Assembly: GCA_043806935.1 (NCBI GenBank)
Contig: JAZDGP010000004.1
Span: 1 to 43,833 of the forward strand
Length of the DNA stretch: 43,833 bases
Source: a bacterium
GTDB lineage: Bacteria > Patescibacteriota > Patescibacteriia > JAZDGP01
Direction of reading: 5' to 3'
The position numbers were made by a program, and so were the translations under genes. Positions 14,322-23,041 of this stretch are shown here, one piece after another (position 1 is the first letter of the stretch; each line of letters starts with the position of its first letter). Under the pieces are notes generated by a model that worked only from the letters and a program-made list of their open reading frames with translations, searched no databases and was not told where the DNA came from.

Positions 14322-17300
14322 ATGCCAACAACAGACCAAACAGTGGCGGACGATTCCGCCTCCAAATCTTCCACCGCGTTTACTGGTAAGATAAACCTTA
14401 TTTCCAAGCAGTCTGGAATGGCCTCTTTGGCTGATGTATTGGCGGAAACGTACAACAAAGCTACCGCGAGCACTATTAAGTACGTGCTGGAACCCAATGG
14501 TTCTTTGCGTTCTTTTGACCAGGAACGCATTTTTGATTCTTTAATAGTTGCCATGGAGCTGTCTGATAGCGTGGATCGGCATTTGGCCCAGAATCTGGCC
14601 AACCAGGTGGTATTACGTTTGGTTGACGAGTTTGACGGCAAGGTAGTGCCTAGATTGTCTGATATCAAAGATCGGGTTAATTTAGTGCTGTTGGACAATA
14701 ATTTGCTTGATTTAGCCAGAGCGTATATTGCCAGCCAGGGCAATGATATTCTGCCAAAGGATTTAGACCCTCATTATAATCCTAAAGGGCTTACAGTGAA
14801 GCGTTTCTTTACTGTTGAAGGAATCCATCCGTATGGCCAGATTGAATGGGAACAGCGGTCAGCTGTTATTACTAACGAAAAGGGAGAAAAAGTGTTCTCA
14901 CAGGAGGACGTGGAAGCGCCTAAGAGCTGGTCGCAGTCAGCGGTTAACATCGTGGTTTCTAAGTATTTTAGAGGAAAGATTGGAACTCCAGGAAGAGAAA
15001 CTTCAATTAAGCAGATGATAGATCGCGTGGCAAAGACCATTAGCGCTTGGGGCAGGAATGGCGGTTATTTTGCTTCCGCTGAAGACGCTTCTGTATTTGA
15101 AGATGAATTGACGTTCTTGTTGGTGAATCAGTACGCGGCGTTTAACAGTCCTGTTTGGTTTAACGTGGGAGTGGAAGTTAAACCGCAGTGTTCGGCGTGT
15201 TTTATCAACAAGGTGGATGACAATATGCGGTCAATACTGAACTTGGCGGTAACAGAAGGGATGCTGTTTAAAGGCGGATCAGGATCAGGGGCTAATTTAT
15301 CTTGCCTAAGGTCTTCCAAAGAGCACCTTAGGGGCAGTTCAGGAAAGTCATCAGGACCAGTGTCATTCATGAAAGGGCTGGATGCGTTTGCCGGGGTGAT
15401 CAAATCAGGAGGCAAGACAAGGCGTGCCGCTAAGATGGTGATTTTAAACATTGACCACCCTGATATTTTAGAATTCATTGACTGCAAAGCGCATGAGGAG
15501 AAAAAAGCTTGGGCTTTGATGGACGCTGGCTATGGCGGTGGGTTTAATGGCGAGGCGTACAGTTCCATATTCTTCCAGAACGCCAATAATTCAGTGAGAG
15601 TGACGGATGAGTACATGAAAGCTGTTGAAGAGGATAAGGAATGGAAAACAAAAGCAGTTACTACGGGAGACGTTGTTGACGCTTATAACGCGAAAGAGAT
15701 CATGAATAGAATAGCGGAAGCGGCTTGGCTGTGCGGTGATCCAGGACTTCAGTACGATACTGCCATTAACGATTGGCATACCTGCCCTAACAGCGGTAGG
15801 ATCAACGGATCTAATCCATGCTCTGAATATATGTTCTTGGATGACACTGCTTGCAATTTAGCTTCTTTGAACTTGATGAAGTTTAGAAAAACAGACGGTT
15901 CTTTTGACGTGGAAGCGTTTAAGATAGGAGTGGAAGTTATGATTACCGCTCAGGAGATCACAGTGGATTATTCCAGTTATCCAACTGACGATATTTCCCG
16001 CAATAGCCATTTGTTCCGCCCATTAGGCATGGGTTACGCCAATTTAGGAGCTTTGCTTATGGCCAGAGGCATTCCTTATGACAGTGAAGCTGGCAGGAAC
16101 ATGGCCTCGGTTATTACCAGCTTGATGACAGGCCACGCGTATTACCAATCAGCTAAGATGGCTAAAGGCTTGGGAACGTTTAGAGAGTATATAAAGAACA
16201 GGGACGCCATGATCAGGGTGATCAACAAGCATAGGAACGCCAGCTACCAGGTAAAGAGCGATGGCGTGGCTAAAGATTTGCTGACTGCGAGCCGAGAGGC
16301 GTGGGATAATGCTTTGAATTTAGGCACGGAAGCGGGGTACAAAAATTCCCAGGTTTCATTGTTAGCTCCTACCGGCACCATTGGCTTTTTAATGGATTGC
16401 GACACCACTGGCGTGGAGCCTGATATCGCGTTGGTTAAGTACAAGTGGCTGGTGGGCGGAGGGCTGATGAAACTGGTCAATACTACTGTGCCTGAAGCGT
16501 TGCAATCTTTGGGGTATGATGAAAATCAGATCAAAGACATTTTATCTTACATTAACCAGCACGACACCATTGAAGGAGCTCCTAATTTGAGAGCCGAGCA
16601 TCTTCTAGTCTTTGACTGCGCTTTTAAACCACAGCAAGGCAATCGTACCATCCACTACCTTGGCCATATCCGCATGATGGCAGCTGTACAACCATTTTTG
16701 TCAGGAGCGATCTCTAAGACTGTTAACATGCCGCAGAACAGCACGCTTCAAGACATTATTGACGCTTACATGCTTGGCTGGAGGTCTGGGCTTAAAGCAT
16801 TGGCAGTGTATAGGGATGGGTCCAAACGGTTGCAGCCGCTCACTACTGGCAAGAGTTCTGACGCGTCAGGCAAGAGCGAAACGAAACTGGAAATGAAGGC
16901 TGAAGCGATTGTACCTGTCGCTCAGCCAGTGCGGAGGAGATTGCCAGCGGAGCGCCAGTCATTGACGCATAAGTTTTCCATTGCTGGCCATGACGGTTAT
17001 CTTACAGTAGGCATGTATGATGATGGCAAACCAGGGGAGATATTTGTCCGAATGTCCAAGGCAGGGAGCGTCATCTCTGGACTCATGGAATCCTTTGCCA
17101 TTGCAGTGTCATTGGCTTTGCAGTACGGCGTTCCCTTGAAGGTATTAGTCAATAAGTTCTCTCACGTCCGTTTTGAACCTTCCGGCTACACCACTAACCC
17201 GCAGATCAGGATCGCCAAGTCAATCGTGGATTATATCTTTAGGTGGCTGGCCAGCAAGTTTTTGCCAAAGGAAGATCAGGTGATAGTAGGCGTGCAGATC

Positions 17301-17504
17301 AAAGAGCTGGAGGAAGACACGCCAGCAGTGTCCGCTACCTTGGAGCTTGCAATGGAAGAAGCTAGGGCTAATGACAGCCAGATGAAGATAGTTTTTGACA
17401 ACCAAGCTGACGCTCCTGTTTGCGACACCTGCGGGTCAATCATGGTGAGGAACGCTTCTTGCTATAAGTGCTTGAATTGCGGATCCACTAGCGGTTGTTC
17501 TTAG
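14322..17504 (+). CDS. nrdJ: class II (AdoCbl-dependent) ribonucleotide reductase with ATP-cone-like N-terminus and TSCPD/Zn-ribbon C-terminus
   Basis: FNSPVWFN, QCSACFI, NPCSE, APTGT, YRDGSK, C-terminal CDTCG..CLNCG. Confidence 0.95.
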   Translation: MPTTDQTVADDSASKSSTAFTGKINLISKQSGMASLADVLAETYNKATASTIKYVLEPNGSLRSFDQERIFDSLIVAMELSDSVDRHLAQNLANQVVLRLVDEFDGKVVPRLSDIKDRVNLVLLDNNLLDLARAYIASQGNDILPKDLDPHYNPKGLTVKRFFTVEGIHPYGQIEWEQRSAVITNEKGEKVFSQEDVEAPKSWSQSAVNIVVSKYFRGKIGTPGRETSIKQMIDRVAKTISAWGRNGGYFASAEDASVFEDELTFLLVNQYAAFNSPVWFNVGVEVKPQCSACFINKVDDNMRSILNLAVTEGMLFKGGSGSGANLSCLRSSKEHLRGSSGKSSGPVSFMKGLDAFAGVIKSGGKTRRAAKMVILNIDHPDILEFIDCKAHEEKKAWALMDAGYGGGFNGEAYSSIFFQNANNSVRVTDEYMKAVEEDKEWKTKAVTTGDVVDAYNAKEIMNRIAEAAWLCGDPGLQYDTAINDWHTCPNSGRINGSNPCSEYMFLDDTACNLASLNLMKFRKTDGSFDVEAFKIGVEVMITAQEITVDYSSYPTDDISRNSHLFRPLGMGYANLGALLMARGIPYDSEAGRNMASVITSLMTGHAYYQSAKMAKGLGTFREYIKNRDAMIRVINKHRNASYQVKSDGVAKDLLTASREAWDNALNLGTEAGYKNSQVSLLAPTGTIGFLMDCDTTGVEPDIALVKYKWLVGGGLMKLVNTTVPEALQSLGYDENQIKDILSYINQHDTIEGAPNLRAEHLLVFDCAFKPQQGNRTIHYLGHIRMMAAVQPFLSGAISKTVNMPQNSTLQDIIDAYMLGWRSGLKALAVYRDGSKRLQPLTTGKSSDASGKSETKLEMKAEAIVPVAQPVRRRLPAERQSLTHKFSIAGHDGYLTVGMYDDGKPGEIFVRMSKAGSVISGLMESFAIAVSLALQYGVPLKVLVNKFSHVRFEPSGYTTNPQIRIAKSIVDYIFRWLASKFLPKEDQVIVGVQIKELEEDTPAVSATLELAMEEARANDSQMKIVFDNQADAPVCDTCGSIMVRNASCYKCLNCGSTSGCS

Positions 17505-17571
17505 AATTAGTTAAGCTAGCAATAGCGCCAGTGATGGCATCCATGCTTGGCCACCACTGGCGCTGTCTATT

Positions 17572-18114
17572 ATGACTAAGGGAATGATCCAAACGTACAC
17601 AGGAGAGGGCAAGGGCAAGACAACAGCCGCTTTAGGGCTGGTTATTAGGGCGTTGGGCAATGGTTTACGGGTAGGAATAGTTTATTTTGATAAGGGAGGT
17701 GAGTTTTATAATGAACGGAAGCTGTTGAATAAATTGATTGAGATTGGTTTGCCATTGCTATATGAAGCAACTGGCCTTCTTCGTTTTGATCCCGCGGCCA
17801 AGACCTTTAGGTTTGGAGTGAATGATGGCGATAAGAAAGAAGCGGAGCGAGGGTTAGTATTAGCCAAACAATTATCTAGTTGTGTTGATTTACTGATCTT
17901 AGACGAGCTTAATTCTACTGTGTCGTTGGGCATGCTGGTCGTGGAATCAGTGGTTGTTTTCTTAAAAGACAAGCCAGAGGGTTTGGAAGTTGTTTTAACT
18001 GGCAGGCAGGCGCCCAAAGAAATTATAGAATTAGCTGATCTGGTTACAGAAATGAAGATGGTGAAACATTATTACAAGCAGGGGGTGGAAGCTAGAGAAG
18101 GGATAGAGTATTGA
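17572..18114 (+). CDS. cobO: cob(I)alamin adenosyltransferase CobA/CobO/BtuR
   Basis: YTGEGKGKTTAALG, LILDE, EVVLTGR, ADLVTEM, GIEY. Confidence 0.93.
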   Translation: MTKGMIQTYTGEGKGKTTAALGLVIRALGNGLRVGIVYFDKGGEFYNERKLLNKLIEIGLPLLYEATGLLRFDPAAKTFRFGVNDGDKKEAERGLVLAKQLSSCVDLLILDELNSTVSLGMLVVESVVVFLKDKPEGLEVVLTGRQAPKEIIELADLVTEMKMVKHYYKQGVEAREGIEY

Positions 18115-18156
18115 CATATTTTGTAGATATGCTATAATTATAACAATAAGAACATC
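18106..18156 (+). repeat. 51-bp exact direct repeat copy 1, contains promoter TTGACA-16-(TGc)TATAAT
   Basis: identical to 18893-18943. Confidence 0.95.
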
Positions 18157-18229
18157 AAAATAACTTAAAAATTTCTTTAGATTAAGCCAATTTTGGCGTT
18201 AATTTAAAGGATATTTATTGGAGGATCAA

Positions 18230-18790
18230 ATGAAATCATTATTATTGTATGTAATAACTTTTGTGGTTTTATCTTCAAACGTATTCGCCCAAAACAGCCT
18301 TTTTGTTGAAAGCGAGTATAAGTATTCTGATGATCCGTCTGTAATCACTTACAGATTAGGAGCCAAACACGACTTTAATAGTAAAATCAGCTTCAGTTCT
18401 TTTGGGCTGGTGAACAAGAATTATGCTCAGGCTCATTTCAGCATCAATTACAAAATCACTGATTGGTTAAAGGCAGGAGTTGGCCAGGGAATAGAGCAAT
18501 CAAAAGAATTGTGGAGATTGGCAGCTAATCTGCAAATAATGAATGGGAGTTATAGTTGGGTTACTTTCTATGAACACGGGATGAATGGATATTGGTTTCA
18601 AACGGAATTAAAATATCAATTCAATCCATCTCTAAGTGTTGGGATCTTTGGCAGAAGATTTGTCGGGTTTGGACCAGAGATAGCGATAGCGATTCCGCAA
18701 ACACCTTTTGTTGTATGGACCGTGCCATACGCTTATGATATTGAAAGTAAAAAAAGCGGTGGTTTGATAGTTATTTTGTTACTGTTTTGA
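18230..18790 (+). CDS. secreted beta-barrel-like protein
   Basis: GGAGG SD, signal peptide ending VFA/Q, alternating aromatic/hydrophobic strands, C-terminal Phe. Confidence 0.65.
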   Translation: MKSLLLYVITFVVLSSNVFAQNSLFVESEYKYSDDPSVITYRLGAKHDFNSKISFSSFGLVNKNYAQAHFSINYKITDWLKAGVGQGIEQSKELWRLAANLQIMNGSYSWVTFYEHGMNGYWFQTELKYQFNPSLSVGIFGRRFVGFGPEIAIAIPQTPFVVWTVPYAYDIESKKSGGLIVILLLF

Positions 18791-18796
18791 TTCGTA

Positions 18797-18837
18797 AAGT
18801 CCTGTTTTATTAAAAGTAAAACAGGACTTTTGTTTTT
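18797..18837 (+). terminator. intrinsic terminator
   Basis: AAAGTCCTGTTTTA/TAAAACAGGACTTT stem plus T-tract. Confidence 0.8.
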
Positions 18838-18892
18838 ATAATGCTATTTCCACAAATCTTATAAAAGCCATCCTTTGCCATGATTATTTATT

Positions 18893-18943
18893 GAGTATTG
18901 ACATATTTTGTAGATATGCTATAATTATAACAATAAGAACATC
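18893..18943 (+). repeat. 51-bp exact direct repeat copy 2 (promoter), followed by a tandem extra TAAGAACATC
   Basis: identical to 18106-18156. Confidence 0.95.
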
Positions 18944-19022
18944 TAAGAACATCCCTAAAATCAGCTGAATAAATCATCCAAATAATTGATTTATTCAGCG
19001 ATTTAAAATAAAGGAGAACACA

Positions 19023-19352
19023 ATGAAATATTTTAACACGACTCTTGGGCTTTCTATGCTTCCGGATGGAAAGTTTTACGTAGTCACTGTTGATGCTGAT
19101 GCCGCAAAATGTTTTTTCTCTTCTAATGATATTCAAAATATCGCTAATCCAACACATGCCAATAGTCTTCAAGCTATTATTCAAAAACTGGGCGTAGATG
19201 TTAGAGACGCCAAGGGTGGTAGAATTAGGTTAAGTTCAGGTGACCAATGTCTAATTGCGGAGATTTCTGGCATTCCTCGTGAAACCCGTGAATTTTCTGA
19301 TACTGAAATTGCCAGTGCGGTATTTAATTTTCGTATAGTCGAAGTATTATAA
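19023..19352 (+). CDS. DUF1874 (STIV B116/YddF/AcrIII-1)-like protein
   Basis: 109 aa; YFNTTLGLSML start, His45, KLGVDV...RIRLSSGDQCLI, PRE...EI, FRIVEV layout. Confidence 0.6.
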   Translation: MKYFNTTLGLSMLPDGKFYVVTVDADAAKCFFSSNDIQNIANPTHANSLQAIIQKLGVDVRDAKGGRIRLSSGDQCLIAEISGIPRETREFSDTEIASAVFNFRIVEVL

Positions 19353-19371
19353 CGTTTTTATTTGAAGTTGT

Positions 19372-19407
19372 ACCCCCTAGTATTATCTTAGGGGGTTTTG
19401 TATTTTT
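19372..19407 (+). terminator. intrinsic terminator
   Basis: ACCCCCTA/TAGGGGGT stem plus T-tract. Confidence 0.75.
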
Positions 19408-19472
19408 GGAGTTCTCTTTGTAAATTAGTTAGTTCCTTGTTTTTTACAGTCAGTGATGTTTTAATACCTAAC

Positions 19473-20024
19473 ATGATTAATCAACAAGAATCGTTTACAC
19501 CCATTAATATGGAGCAAACGCTAACCGAAGAAAAGATAGCAGAACTAGTTACAGAAGTTAAAGCAATGATAGCTCCTTTTTATAATGCCATTGAACAAGC
19601 TAGGAAAGCTAATGCGGACAGAGAAGTAGGAGGAAGGATTAAATCTGGCAAATTACAATTTATGGATGAATCGCAGTGGCTGAGCAGTTCGGTGGTCGGT
19701 GAATTTCATGAAGAGGAAAGAAAAATAACTAAAGACGGTTGGCTTACTTTCCATACGCATCCGGTAGCTGGCCTACCCCATGAATCAGCAGCTGATATCC
19801 TAGCGGCTTATTATCGTTTGCGGGAAGTGATTATTCATGAACAAGGTATTACTTTACTGATCGCTTTGAAAGAATTGCCAGTGGATATAATCACTAAATT
19901 GGACGAACAAGCTTGGAAGGAAGCGCAATTAGAAGAAGAAAAAAGCGGAGAGCAAGCGTATTGGTTTTGGAAAGGTATTCTTCAACAAAAACTGCCGGTA
20001 CGGGTCGTTAATTTTAAACTATAA
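19473..20024 (+). CDS. JAB/MPN-like metalloprotein
   Basis: REVGG...FHTHP-x7-SAAD resembles the JAMM motif; start uncertain (19473 or 19509). Confidence 0.6.
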   Translation: MINQQESFTPINMEQTLTEEKIAELVTEVKAMIAPFYNAIEQARKANADREVGGRIKSGKLQFMDESQWLSSSVVGEFHEEERKITKDGWLTFHTHPVAGLPHESAADILAAYYRLREVIIHEQGITLLIALKELPVDIITKLDEQAWKEAQLEEEKSGEQAYWFWKGILQQKLPVRVVNFKL

Positions 20025-20157
20025 ATACCGGAAACGTTATTATTACTTTAGAAGTTATGATGGGCTCGAATTATTCGCTCACTTTATTATGTTTTTAGTA
20101 TTTTATACTATACTACCCTTATAAAGGTTGTCCTTTACTATGGTTATTTATGGAGCA

Positions 20158-20186
20158 TTGACAACATTAAATTATCGTGATAAGGT
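20158..20186 (+). promoter_or_regulatory. sigma70-type promoter TTGACA-17-(TGa)TAAGGT
   Basis: consensus match; upstream 46 nt homologous to 18858-18903. Confidence 0.65.
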
Positions 20187-20240
20187 GTTTAGTCATTTAG
20201 AACATTGAGTTCTGGTGATCAAAAACATTTGGAGGTTAAC

Positions 20241-21185
20241 ATGAAATCATTATTGTATGTAATAACCATTGTGGCGCTATCTTCAAGCATATTTGCTCAA
20301 CAATCTATTCGCATTGACGGTTTTGTTCATTTGCTGGACGGTTACAGTAAAACACCAATCGGCGGGCAGGTACAACGTTCCATGGTTAAACTGAGGTTAA
20401 ATAACGCTCAATATGGAGCAGTGGTTAACTTTGATTTAGCTGGACCACGGTTGTTGCACAATGCTTTTATCTGGTTCGGTCTTCCTCCTTTCGGTTTTGT
20501 CAATTCGTTTAAAATTTCTTTTGGGAAGACGATTCCGATTTTTGGAAACAACTATCCATTGTATCCTTCTGAAATTATCTTGATCAACTTTAATCCAAGC
20601 GCTAGTAAGATGTTGACTGTCAGGGATGTTGGCCTGAGTGCTCAATGGGAAACTCCTTGGGTTAAGGGCATTTGTTCCATCACTAATGGGACGGATACAA
20701 GGCTGGTTAATGGAGGAGACAACAATAATTCAAGAGACATTTCTCTCAGGTTGGTTAAAAAGTTTTGGTTTTTTTCGGTGGCGGCCAGCGCTCGTTTTGC
20801 TGATGCTGATTTTGCCAAGAGGCTGATTGGAGCGGATATAGAAGTTGCTTATGATAGTTTGAAAATAATATCCGAAATCATCCTCTCAAACATTGCTGGA
20901 TTTCCGGTGCTCGGGCAAACAAATGCGTTGATGTTGAACGCGGGTAATAAAGAATCAGTAGGTTTGAATGTAATGGGCGTTTATTCTTTTTCCCCTTGTG
21001 AATTTATCGCTGATTTTGATCATTACCATTCGGTGGTTAGCACTGAGCAAACGTATACATTTGGTATTAACTACCACTTGTCAAAACAGGTGAGATTTGC
21101 AGTAAATTGTATTCAGGTTGAAAATAAAACAACTGGCATTGAACGTAAAGTTTTATCCCAGTTGGAATACAAAATTAGTATTTAA
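20241..21185 (+). CDS. secreted porin-like (OprO/OprP-like) beta-barrel protein
   Basis: GGAGG SD, signal peptide, RDVGL...ITNG...DNNNSRDISLRL motif, YTFGINYH, QLEYKI terminal strand. Confidence 0.6.
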   Translation: MKSLLYVITIVALSSSIFAQQSIRIDGFVHLLDGYSKTPIGGQVQRSMVKLRLNNAQYGAVVNFDLAGPRLLHNAFIWFGLPPFGFVNSFKISFGKTIPIFGNNYPLYPSEIILINFNPSASKMLTVRDVGLSAQWETPWVKGICSITNGTDTRLVNGGDNNNSRDISLRLVKKFWFFSVAASARFADADFAKRLIGADIEVAYDSLKIISEIILSNIAGFPVLGQTNALMLNAGNKESVGLNVMGVYSFSPCEFIADFDHYHSVVSTEQTYTFGINYHLSKQVRFAVNCIQVENKTTGIERKVLSQLEYKISI

Positions 21186-21212
21186 CTATGAATTTAGATT
21201 TTGTTCCGCTTC

Positions 21213-21251
21213 AAAGTCCCGTTTCGTTGATTGAGACGGGATTTTTGTTTT
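21213..21251 (+). terminator. intrinsic terminator
   Basis: AAAGTCCCGTTTC/GAGACGGGATTTT stem plus T-tract. Confidence 0.75.
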
Positions 21252-21311
21252 CATGCTATGCTATCCATACAAAGGTCGTTCTTTTTTATAATCACTATTA
21301 ACCTTATTTAT

Positions 21312-21515
21312 ATGGATCAAATGATGGAACAAAATAAGTCATGTTCCTGTACGCACCATAAGTTCGTGCCATTTCTTATTTTCTTGTTTGGTTTGCTATT
21401 CCTGCTAGGCAATCTGGGCGTGCTAGGGCAAGGATTAGTGGACATTGTCTGGCCGATCCTAGTGCTGCTTGGCGGTTTGTCCATGATGACCAGCGGTAAG
21501 TGCAAGTGCTGCTAA
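21312..21515 (+). CDS. small 2-TM protein (LiaF/DUF5668-like) with Cys-rich ends
   Basis: GLLFLLGNLG...WPILVLLGG; CSCTHH and CKCC. Confidence 0.7.
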   Translation: MDQMMEQNKSCSCTHHKFVPFLIFLFGLLFLLGNLGVLGQGLVDIVWPILVLLGGLSMMTSGKCKCC

Positions 21516-21569
21516 GGCAGATAAAAACAGCCTCTGACAACAGAGGCTGTTTTCTGTTATAATGACCAT

Positions 21570-22967
21570 ATGAAAATAAAGTTCTGTGGCGCCGCCCAAA
21601 ACGTCACTGGGTCCAAACATCTGCTCCAGATCGGGGAGAAGAAAGTGCTGTTAGACTGCGGTCTGTTTCAAGGGAATCCTAGGGAATCTGCTGGCCTTAA
21701 CCGCCACTGGCCGTTTGATATCAAGGAAGTTTCTCATGTTGTTCTGTCACATGGGCATTTAGACCATTGCGGAGGAATTTTACGTTTGGCTAAAGAAGGC
21801 TGGAAAGGGAAGGTGTGGTGCACGGAAGCCACCAAAGACGTGGTGTACTGGATTCTTAAAGACGCGGCTTACATACAGCAGGGAGACTACGAGTACGCTG
21901 TAAGGAAAGCAAAGATGAAAGCGGAAGATATTCCTGAACCTTTGTTTGGGCCTGATGACGTGGATACCGCCATGGAGCTATTTGAAACGATTCCTTACCA
22001 ATCTTGGACTGACATTGAACCTAATATCCGTGTCAAGATGTATGACGCTGGACATATTTTAGGTTCATCCGTGATTGCTTTGGAGTACGTGGAAGATGGC
22101 GTTATAAGACGGCTTGGATTTTCTGGAGACTTAGGGAGAAAGAAAGTTCCTATATTAAGAGATCCGCAGGTGATTGAAGAGGATGTTGATATTTGGATCA
22201 TGGAGAGCACGTATGGAGACAGATTGCACGCTAGCATTGACGATTTGGAAACAAGATTAGTGGAAGTGATTAAGAAAGCGGTTGAACGGAAGGCTAAAAT
22301 CATCTGTCCGGCTTTCTCTTTGGGAAGAACGCAGGAATTGATTTATGTGTTACATAAGCTGACTGACGAAGGGAAATTGCCTCGTTTCCCAATGTACGTG
22401 GACAGCCCGTTAGCTGGCAGCATCACCACTGTCTTTGGCAAGCATTTAGATCTCTTTGATAACCACTCACGTGTTGATTTCTTAAACCATGGAGATAATC
22501 CGTTTGGATTCAGGAATCTGACGTATACCAGAGACAAGACCGCTTCTGAAGCGCTCAATGGCATGCCTGGACCTATGCTGATCATATCAGCTAGCGGCAT
22601 GGCCAATGCCGGTAGAGTATTGCATCACCTGAAGCATAACGTCAGCGATCCCAACAACATGGTGCTGATCACTGGATTCATGGCCAAGCACACGTTAGGC
22701 AGAAGCTTGGTGGAGAAGGAACCGACGGTTAGGATCTTTGGAGAGAGTTATCCGGTCAGGGCGGAAATCCAGATCTTTAACGAATTCTCCGCTCACGCTG
22801 ATTACCAAGGTTTGATAGATTACACATTAAGCTTGAAAGGGATTAAGAAGATATTCCTGGTGCACGGTGAAGCTGGGCAAACTAATATCTTAAAAGCAAG
22901 GCTGGAGAACCTGAAACAAGGCTGGGAGGTGATTGTACCTGCTTACGAGGAAGAATTCATTGTATGA
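21570..22967 (+). CDS. MBL-fold beta-CASP ribonuclease
   Basis: VTGS, DCG, SHGHLDH, AGHILGS, ESTYG, FSAHAD, VHGE. Confidence 0.93.
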   Translation: MKIKFCGAAQNVTGSKHLLQIGEKKVLLDCGLFQGNPRESAGLNRHWPFDIKEVSHVVLSHGHLDHCGGILRLAKEGWKGKVWCTEATKDVVYWILKDAAYIQQGDYEYAVRKAKMKAEDIPEPLFGPDDVDTAMELFETIPYQSWTDIEPNIRVKMYDAGHILGSSVIALEYVEDGVIRRLGFSGDLGRKKVPILRDPQVIEEDVDIWIMESTYGDRLHASIDDLETRLVEVIKKAVERKAKIICPAFSLGRTQELIYVLHKLTDEGKLPRFPMYVDSPLAGSITTVFGKHLDLFDNHSRVDFLNHGDNPFGFRNLTYTRDKTASEALNGMPGPMLIISASGMANAGRVLHHLKHNVSDPNNMVLITGFMAKHTLGRSLVEKEPTVRIFGESYPVRAEIQIFNEFSAHADYQGLIDYTLSLKGIKKIFLVHGEAGQTNILKARLENLKQGWEVIVPAYEEEFIV

Positions 22968-23041
22968 CCTTTGATGGACATCATAAATGACAATAGATCT
23001 TAATAAGAATGTGTTATAATAAGTTTATAAAATTAGTTTTT

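Follow-up and report, generated by a model that had tools for sequence, protein, structure and literature searches.

The 43,833-nucleotide (nt) contig JAZDGP010000004.1 (contig C4) of a patescibacterial genome (assembly GCA_043806935.1; 701,928 bp in 51 contigs, rated 96% complete) is, in its full length, called the window here. It carries a tandem array of three gene units (18103-21284, ~3.2 kb) that begins within the final codons of cobO, all units lying on the forward strand and in direct orientation. The expression signals enclosing the genes, here termed shells, are homologous between units (~80-96% identical), while the coding cores come from unrelated families. The array probably consists of three self-contained, moron-like cassettes, derived from an ancestral cassette that was duplicated and whose cores were replaced by way of the shared shells, with the promoters of the first two units made identical in the recent past.

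Reuse of promoters, and of shared promoter and leader shells, is known from a few pathogens, but how it comes about can seldom be seen. In this array every piece of an expression unit, from promoter to spacer, recurs around unrelated genes within 3.2 kb. This suggests a possible route by which bacteria with tiny genomes, whose core genes, as seen in this window, mostly lack ribosome sites, equip gained genes for expression and export.

Shared modules of the three units

The array divides into unit a (18103-18889), unit b (18890-20157), and unit c (20158-21284). Each has a sigma-70 promoter whose -10 box is extended by TG, followed by a leader that forms a hairpin in units a and b, one or more open reading frames (ORFs), and a spacer of ~45-75 nt. 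A strong GGAGG ribosome site, a Sec signal peptide, and an intrinsic terminator complete units a and c. Of the two ORFs in unit b, the second lacks the ribosome site and strong terminator that the first possesses, and a decayed terminator precedes the second spacer copy. The parts are as follows (aa, amino acids).

18103-18159 (+), promoter module P, copy a (-35 box 18111-18116; TG-extended -10 box 18133-18138)
18173-18211 (+), unit a leader hairpin (RNA fold z -3.0; homologous to the leader hairpin on contig C24)
18218-18292 (+), ribosome site (TTGGAGG-N5-ATG) and signal-peptide module, copy a
18230-18790 (+), cargo a, 186-aa predicted secreted small beta-barrel with KdgM-like fold, ending in ...LLLF
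18796-18830 (+), intrinsic terminator T of unit a, with 14-nt perfect arms (terminator scan)
18828-18903 (+), terminator tail and spacer U, copy 1, running into the -35 box of P copy b
18890-18946 (+), promoter module P, copy b (-35 box 18898-18903; -10 box 18920-18925)
18958-19004 (+), unit b leader hairpin (RNA fold z -5.1; sequence unrelated to the unit a hairpin)
19023-19352 (+), cargo b1, 109-aa cytoplasmic protein, DUF1874 / STIV B116 / AcrIII-1-Crn2-like, ring-nuclease fold
19372-19396 (+), intrinsic terminator behind cargo b1 (terminator scan)
19473-20024 (+), cargo b2, orphan ORF, 183 aa from the first ATG (frame open from 19398)
20093-20163 (+), decayed terminator tail and spacer U, copy 2, ending in the unit c -35 box TTGACA (20158-20163)
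20158-20186 (+), candidate degenerate promoter of unit c (TTGACA, 17-nt spacer, TG-a-TAAGGT)
20229-20300 (+), ribosome site and signal-peptide module, copy c
20241-21185 (+), cargo c, 314-aa predicted secreted 16-strand porin-like beta-barrel
21213-21245 (+), intrinsic terminator T of unit c, related to T of unit a
21242-21284 (+), terminator tail and spacer U, copy 3, at the right end of the array

Promoter copies a and b are identical at 55/57 positions (blastn E 6e-20 against the 702-kb genome) and contain an exact run of 51 nt (18106-18156 = 18893-18943), which bears out a sequence-only reading of this DNA that had pointed to an exact promoter repeat starting in the last codons of cobO. 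Both have a perfect TTGACA-16-TG-n-TATAAT arrangement (12/12 in the promoter scan). Searching the genome for the modules, as had been proposed with that reading, returned P four times, twice on other contigs (C24 and C46); with an nhmmer profile of the P copies exactly four matches had E <= 6.4e-13, the next having E values of 0.014 and 0.095. The copy on C46 is 84% (84.4%) identical to copy a over 64 nt and that on C24 75% over 129 nt, the whole unit a leader included, so that the 96% identity of promoters a and b compares with 75-84% for the other copies. In all four, the ~20 nt that follow the -10 box, in the initial transcribed stretch (...AAGAACATCAAA), are conserved as well. The C24 copy heads a lipoprotein gene and the C46 copy a small membrane-protein ORF; the cargoes behind the four copies have no mutual similarity (tblastn; inspection for the C24 and C46 cargoes). 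Judged from the DNA sequence, the reuse of module P before unrelated cargo at four places appears to be promoter propagation.

The four copies differ in setting. Copy a overlaps the final 12 nt of cobO, whose last codons, including the stop codon (18112-18114), overlap the -35 box; copies b and C46 are intergenic; on C24, 3 nt separate the -35 box from the start codon of a divergently oriented gene upstream. The product of this gene, divergent from the lipoprotein gene, was taken by eye from its N-terminus to be glutamyl-tRNA synthetase-like, and the gene divergent from the C46 cargo, also by eye, is presumably rpsO. The leaders of unit a and C24 match at 46/70 ungapped positions, and all four P-led leaders place a hairpin ahead of the ribosome site (fold z -3.0, -1.3, -5.1, and -2.7). 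The candidate promoter of unit c scores under the promoter-scan threshold and was identified by eye.

Units a and c are linked by their ribosome sites and signal peptides, which the sequence-only reading had described as common to the genes starting at 18230 and 20241. The two segments (18218-18292 and 20229-20300) are indeed 80% identical over 75 nt (E 2.9e-11), and within the signal-peptide DNA 45/55 positions agree, the next best site in the genome reaching 34/55. The N-termini of cargoes a and c have 17/27 identical residues, and BLASTP aligns nothing beyond the signal peptide; the predicted cleavage sites (..VFA/QN and ..IFA/QQ) lack a cysteine and point to signal-peptidase-I-type signals with no lipobox. 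That the mature regions are unrelated, as had been claimed, is supported by a comparison of the two barrel families as hhalign profiles (probability 18.9% over 32 columns). Relatives of the barrel cores elsewhere carry differing signal peptides, and with the array proteins as tblastn queries the whole genome yielded self-matches and the a/c signal-peptide match only.

The terminators of the same two units are related, in agreement with the earlier reading: their local alignment scores 31, against a mean of 17.3, a standard deviation of 2.6, and a maximum of 30 in 1000 shuffles. The motif AAAGTCC.GTTT occurs nowhere in the genome but in these two terminators and in the palindromic reverse of the first. 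The right arm and tail taken alone match at 19/26 ungapped positions, which is unexceptional, other genome sites reaching 20/26.

A block of terminator tail plus spacer U is present three times; together with the P copies on two other contigs and the non-secreted cargo of the middle unit, it goes beyond what had been described earlier. The segment 18858-18903 matches 20118-20163 at 37/46 positions, as had been noted, and this is the best ungapped match in the genome to that 46-mer (next 29/46); the nine differences are 8 transitions and 1 transversion. Local alignment of U copies 1 and 2 scores 48 (shuffles 17.6 +/- 2.7) and of copies 2 and 3 scores 36 (17.4 +/- 3.0; 0/1000 shuffles reach 36). 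The three pairwise z values are 11.3, 6.3, and 5.2, with 0/1000 shuffles reaching the observed scores; a three-way alignment was also made, and five control intergenic regions of the window gave z values of -1.0 to 2.1. Across the spacer and signal-peptide segments the differences amount to 16 transitions and 3 transversions, a bias that argues for descent rather than convergence.

Had the coding DNA been duplicated along with its flanks, it would be expected to be at least as similar as the non-coding flanks; the cores were therefore not inherited together with the shells. Since homologous shells surround cores of different families, some recombination is needed, whether core replacement, module capture, or gene conversion. 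The part of the sequence-only reading that saw a mosaic of reused modules is upheld on these grounds.

The array has an accessory character, combining low guanine-plus-cytosine (GC) content, strong ribosome sites, and flanking core genes. Its GC content is 0.362 against 0.436 for the genome, within the lowest 0.5% of 1111 windows of equal size; the C24 and C46 cargoes are also GC-poor (0.372 and 0.390). Strong ribosome sites (GGAGG or AAGGAG) precede the first gene of each unit (a, b1, and c) and the C24 cargo, the C46 cargo having a weaker GGAG. Among the 33 gene starts of the window that were compared for Shine-Dalgarno matches, the cassette genes have theirs at ideal spacing, and just 6/28 of the other genes have even a 4-nt match. 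Across the genome, 82 ORFs of >=50 aa lie behind GGAGG, many with signal-peptide-like starts.

A few further observations concern module P. A 16-nt near-palindrome, TGCTATAATTATAACA (14/16), lies over the -10 box of promoters a and b (18130-18145 and 18917-18932); an operator-like role was considered and dropped, as the palindrome is not kept in the C46 and C24 copies. A miniature inverted-repeat element or other transposon as the source of the module was likewise dropped, there being no terminal inverted repeats and four copies only. The two weaker look-alikes, on C14 (~27119, reverse strand; nhmmer E 0.014) and C2 (~6085, forward strand; E 0.095), head an unknown protein of 232-250 aa and a lipoprotein, both with AAGGAG sites; they may be older P copies.

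Origin of the array

Under the reading that we favour, a single ancestral cassette would have been duplicated in tandem, after which cores would have been exchanged by recombination through the conserved shell or incoming genes captured into shell copies. The exchange could, for instance, have involved DNA bearing the same shell and two crossovers, one in the signal-peptide segment and one in the terminator/spacer segment. A recent short duplication or gene conversion would then have made promoters a and b identical, and the promoter-leader piece would have spread independently to at least two other loci. Judging from its consensus signals, the shell would ensure that accessory genes are strongly transcribed and are translated from a ribosome site; in units with the signal-peptide piece it would also direct the products to the Sec pathway.

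Several points weigh against this account. No sister genome or strain was at hand, and core replacement and its direction are deduced rather than observed; the four nearest cobO loci (L029-L032) share nothing with the array downstream of cobO. The notion of three copies of one unit draws mainly on the spacer, terminator, and signal-peptide pieces, since the resemblance of the unit c promoter and leader to module P is limited to the -35 box and a short AGAACAT box. Promoter strength and transcription starts are predicted from consensus signals, and Sec export of cargoes a and c is a prediction as well. Conversion among pre-existing shells could, moreover, maintain their likeness with no swap of cores.

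This last point leads to an alternative in which cargo was never swapped: the shells would be functional sites under common selection, homogenised by short gene conversion between old neighbours, and the P copies would form a regulon. Such a regulon would fit the ~20 nt conserved past the -10 box in all four P copies, the AGAACAT box at a similar distance in unit c, and the hairpin before the ribosome site in every P-led leader, and the a/b promoter identity resembles conversion. Conversion, however, presupposes homology, and the initial sharing of shells by unrelated cores still demands recombination or capture; terminator and spacer pieces are unlikely targets of a regulator, a candidate regulator did not emerge, and the near-palindrome that covers the -10 box is confined to the a and b copies. 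On balance this alternative is rather unlikely. A further proposal, which we regard as quite unlikely, is that the shell, with its promoter-leader, GGAGG site, Sec signal, and terminator-spacer, is a recombination-prone 'expression adaptor' common in this Patescibacteria lineage, through which accessory genes are exchanged within the population, and that the array is a host-interaction toolkit. If this were so, the two outer-membrane-type barrels might be targeted to a diderm host's outer membrane or to an envelope layer that has so far escaped recognition, and the AcrIII-1-like b1 could quench the cyclic-oligoadenylate defence signalling of the host.

Active programmed shuffling, in which the repeats are working recombination sites and units are excised, circularised, or swapped in the manner of integrons or phase variation, is very unlikely. 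It draws on the exact 51-nt direct repeat that brackets a 787-bp unit, on the recurrence of modules around unrelated cargo, and on promoters a and b being 96% identical where the other copies reach 75-84%, which points to a very recent event. Against it, the Pfam scan of the 36 larger window ORFs gave no match to families of recombinases, integrases, or transposases; the unit ends have no att-like sites, and their only inverted repeats are the terminator hairpins; with all genes on one strand, an inversion switch is impossible; and a promoter is present in every unit, unlike in integron cassettes. The recombination hotspot proposed by the sequence-only reading is accordingly not supported, and of the excision it envisaged for the 787-bp unit there remains only that a 51-nt direct repeat could in principle mediate a deletion, with no sign of an actual excision system. 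The same reading had named an assembly artefact as one of two things that would overturn it. That the contig was joined chimerically, or a repeat collapsed, at the identical 51 nt might be considered in a metagenome-type assembly of 51 contigs, an exact repeat of this length being near common assembler word sizes. Yet the copies differ immediately beyond their exact run (55/57). Divergence of ~20% with a transition bias in the remaining shared pieces, and diverged module copies on three contigs, are not what an artefact can yield. Spacer U, which bridges the unit a terminator and promoter b, is found twice more further along this contig, and the full conserved C-terminus of cobO is intact across the junction. 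An artefact is thus scarcely credible, and the duplication of one cassette with later replacement of its cores remains the reading we prefer.

Known systems and other genomes

The cassettes combine features of several known arrangements. Phage morons are autonomous promoter-gene-terminator units of deviant composition within phage or prophage genomes. The units described here resemble them in having their own promoter and terminator, a deviant GC content, and an insertion between unrelated genes; they differ in lying outside a prophage (neighbours are cobO, class II ribonucleotide reductase, and a beta-CASP nuclease) and in sharing shells. Integron arrays are defined by an intI integrase, attI and attC sites, and a common Pc promoter serving promoterless cassettes. 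Single-gene units with unrelated cargo at one site are common to both systems, but here there is no integrase, no attC-like imperfect inverted repeat, and no common Pc, and the units bear promoters.

Putative mobile promoters have been defined as sequences with >=80% identity over >=50 nt upstream of non-homologous genes within a single genome that are not associated with any known mobile element (Nijveen, Matus-Garcia and van Passel 2012; PMC3575422); the survey used a window of -150 to -50, adjacent coding sequences were not paralogous, and upstream fragments were not to overlap flanking coding regions (PMC3575422). The a/b (55/57) and a/C46 (84% over 64 nt) pairs meet this definition within the -150 to -50 window, and the coding sequences behind the P copies are non-paralogous. 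The a/C24 pair, 75% identical over 129 nt, falls short of 80%. Also unlike such promoters, the array shares the ribosome site and signal peptide, terminator, and spacer, has three units in tandem, and has a promoter copy that overlaps cobO.

The erp genes of Borrelia burgdorferi (OspE/F-related, 'upstream homology box') have a conserved promoter and leader peptide joined to mature parts of many independent origins, attributed to recombination (PMC10016077). Their products are lipoproteins; the genes occupy an allelic site of cp32 prophage plasmids and have a defined operator (PMC10016077). A shared leader peptide (17/27 residues; 80% at the nucleotide level) ahead of unrelated mature parts is seen here too; the differences are signal-peptidase-I signals, beta-barrel cargo, a chromosomal site between core genes, and a leader common to two genes only. 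In the variable Mycoplasma vsp/vpma lipoprotein loci, clustered genes have a conserved 5' untranslated and signal-peptide region and dissimilar coding sequences, and switching occurs by site-specific inversion with an adjacent recombinase and a single promoter (PMC2268961). Unlike these loci, the window has no recombinase among the ORFs scanned, and its units carry a promoter each and all point the same way.

No close strain was found in scans of metagenomes, of genomes of the class, or of named genomes, and the nearest relatives in the collection belong to the same class only. A scan of named genomes with cobO gave 24 loci, the best (63% identity) in a Candidatus Komeilibacteria genome; the synteny of ribonucleotide reductase and cobO recurs in one 'Patescibacteria group' genome. 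Downstream of cobO, where the sequence-only reading had proposed a comparison across strains, the four nearest of these loci have genes unrelated to the array. The promoter pattern with <=3 mismatches occurred in 4/400 class genomes, all generic promoter look-alikes. The only sequencing run found, from wastewater, contained 0.05 of the sampled words and gave only two 151-nt contigs over 16000-23000 (20706-20856 and 20876-21026); these cover no repeat junction and are uninformative on deletions or circles.

When metagenome contigs were scanned for the promoter core, a 26-nt pattern that includes the spacer and specifies 23 bases, five loci resulted, none like this genome by blastn, in a collection that may omit the genome's own records. 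Exact matches, apparent promoters in unrelated low-GC metagenome contigs, include L020 463-488, L021/L022 6001-6026, and L023 671-696; they may reflect a wider preference for the spacer TATTTTGTAGAT or coincidence in AT-rich DNA. A viral origin was rejected, the promoter pattern having matched one low-GC giant-virus contig only, most likely by chance.

Cargo genes and their surroundings

The window otherwise has the gene content of a core region (topA, dprA, fur, suf, class II ribonucleotide reductase, cobO, beta-CASP nuclease, ftsEX, and others). The array is bordered by two genes.

17572-18114 (+), cobO, ATP:corrinoid adenosyltransferase, the core gene at the left border (Pfam PF02572, E 1.1e-52)
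21312-21515 (+), small LiaF-TM-like membrane protein, the first gene beyond the array (Pfam PF22570, E 2.7e-6; normal GC, 0.461)

The C-terminus of the cobO product (...REGIEY) is kept in relatives. No Rfam family reached its gathering score within 17900-21700, the four array proteins scanned with PADLOC matched no defence system, and the unit proteins gave two matches to PHROG, both with E > 0.01.

Cargo b1, which has no signal peptide, belongs to a family of 44 homologues besides itself (50-71% identity), many with PF08960; its own Pfam match is weak (E 0.073). The AlphaFold2 model is confident (predicted local distance difference test, pLDDT, 93), and Foldseek matches 6SCF, 2J85, 2X4I, and 8Y7F at probability 1.00. 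Its residue His45, which we take to be the equivalent of the catalytic His of AcrIII-1, is invariant across an alignment of 16 out of 45 sequences. From fold and family, b1 could be a putative cyclic tetra-adenylate ring nuclease. The family is present in 4/200 class relatives, and no relative was found in the viral contigs searched. In one relative (G135; L062 1150-1870) a close b1 homologue lies in a GC-rich stretch, followed by AT-rich DNA with a TTGCAA...TATAAT promoter, a context that suggests that genes of the b1 type move between genomes of differing composition.

Cargo b2 has no match in Pfam, PHROG, PADLOC, or PDB (query 19464-20024, 3 residues longer) and was found in 0/200 class relatives; PDB sequence searches with b1 and b2 gave nothing meaningful. 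It has neither a ribosome site nor a clear promoter and may be expressed by read-through of the terminator at 19372-19396 or from a leaderless start.

For cargo a, the Atlas's own model has a predicted TM-score (pTM) of 0.76 and TM-scores of 0.75-0.86 to small barrels and to KdgM/NanC-type clusters; the family is present in 11/200 class relatives. For cargo c, Pfam matches stay under the gathering cut-offs (Porin_4, E 2.8e-5, 24.5 bits against 27; Porin_O_P, 11.4 against 20.9). The AlphaFold2 model has 16 strands (pLDDT 68), with Foldseek matches to 2POR, OmpU, and OmpF at probability 1.00 and a TM-score of ~0.6; comparison with the Atlas gave TM-scores of 0.81-0.84. A HMMER search of the full representative library found six other proteins at E <= 0.001, of which five have ~295-309 aa and the sixth, a 3015-aa repeat protein, was set aside; the family is present in 2/100 class relatives. 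Word-index protein searches with both barrels returned self-matches only.

The five aligned relatives of cargo c end in QLQxxF, a typical C-terminal signal of barrels; cargo c itself ends in QLEYKISI, with no terminal aromatic residue. Omp85, LpxC, and OMP_b-brl had no match in this 96%-complete genome, nor was Omp85 found in five barrel-carrying relatives, which raises a second question, namely the role of porin-type barrels in cells where Omp85 and LpxC were not found. Both barrel families are sporadic in a class with genomes of 0.6-1.6 Mb, and most members end in an aromatic residue (e.g. L027, L054, L057, and L058). In another relative (G161; L056 778-2259, reverse strand), a 493-aa protein has two tandem small-barrel domains behind an acidic low-complexity N-terminal region.

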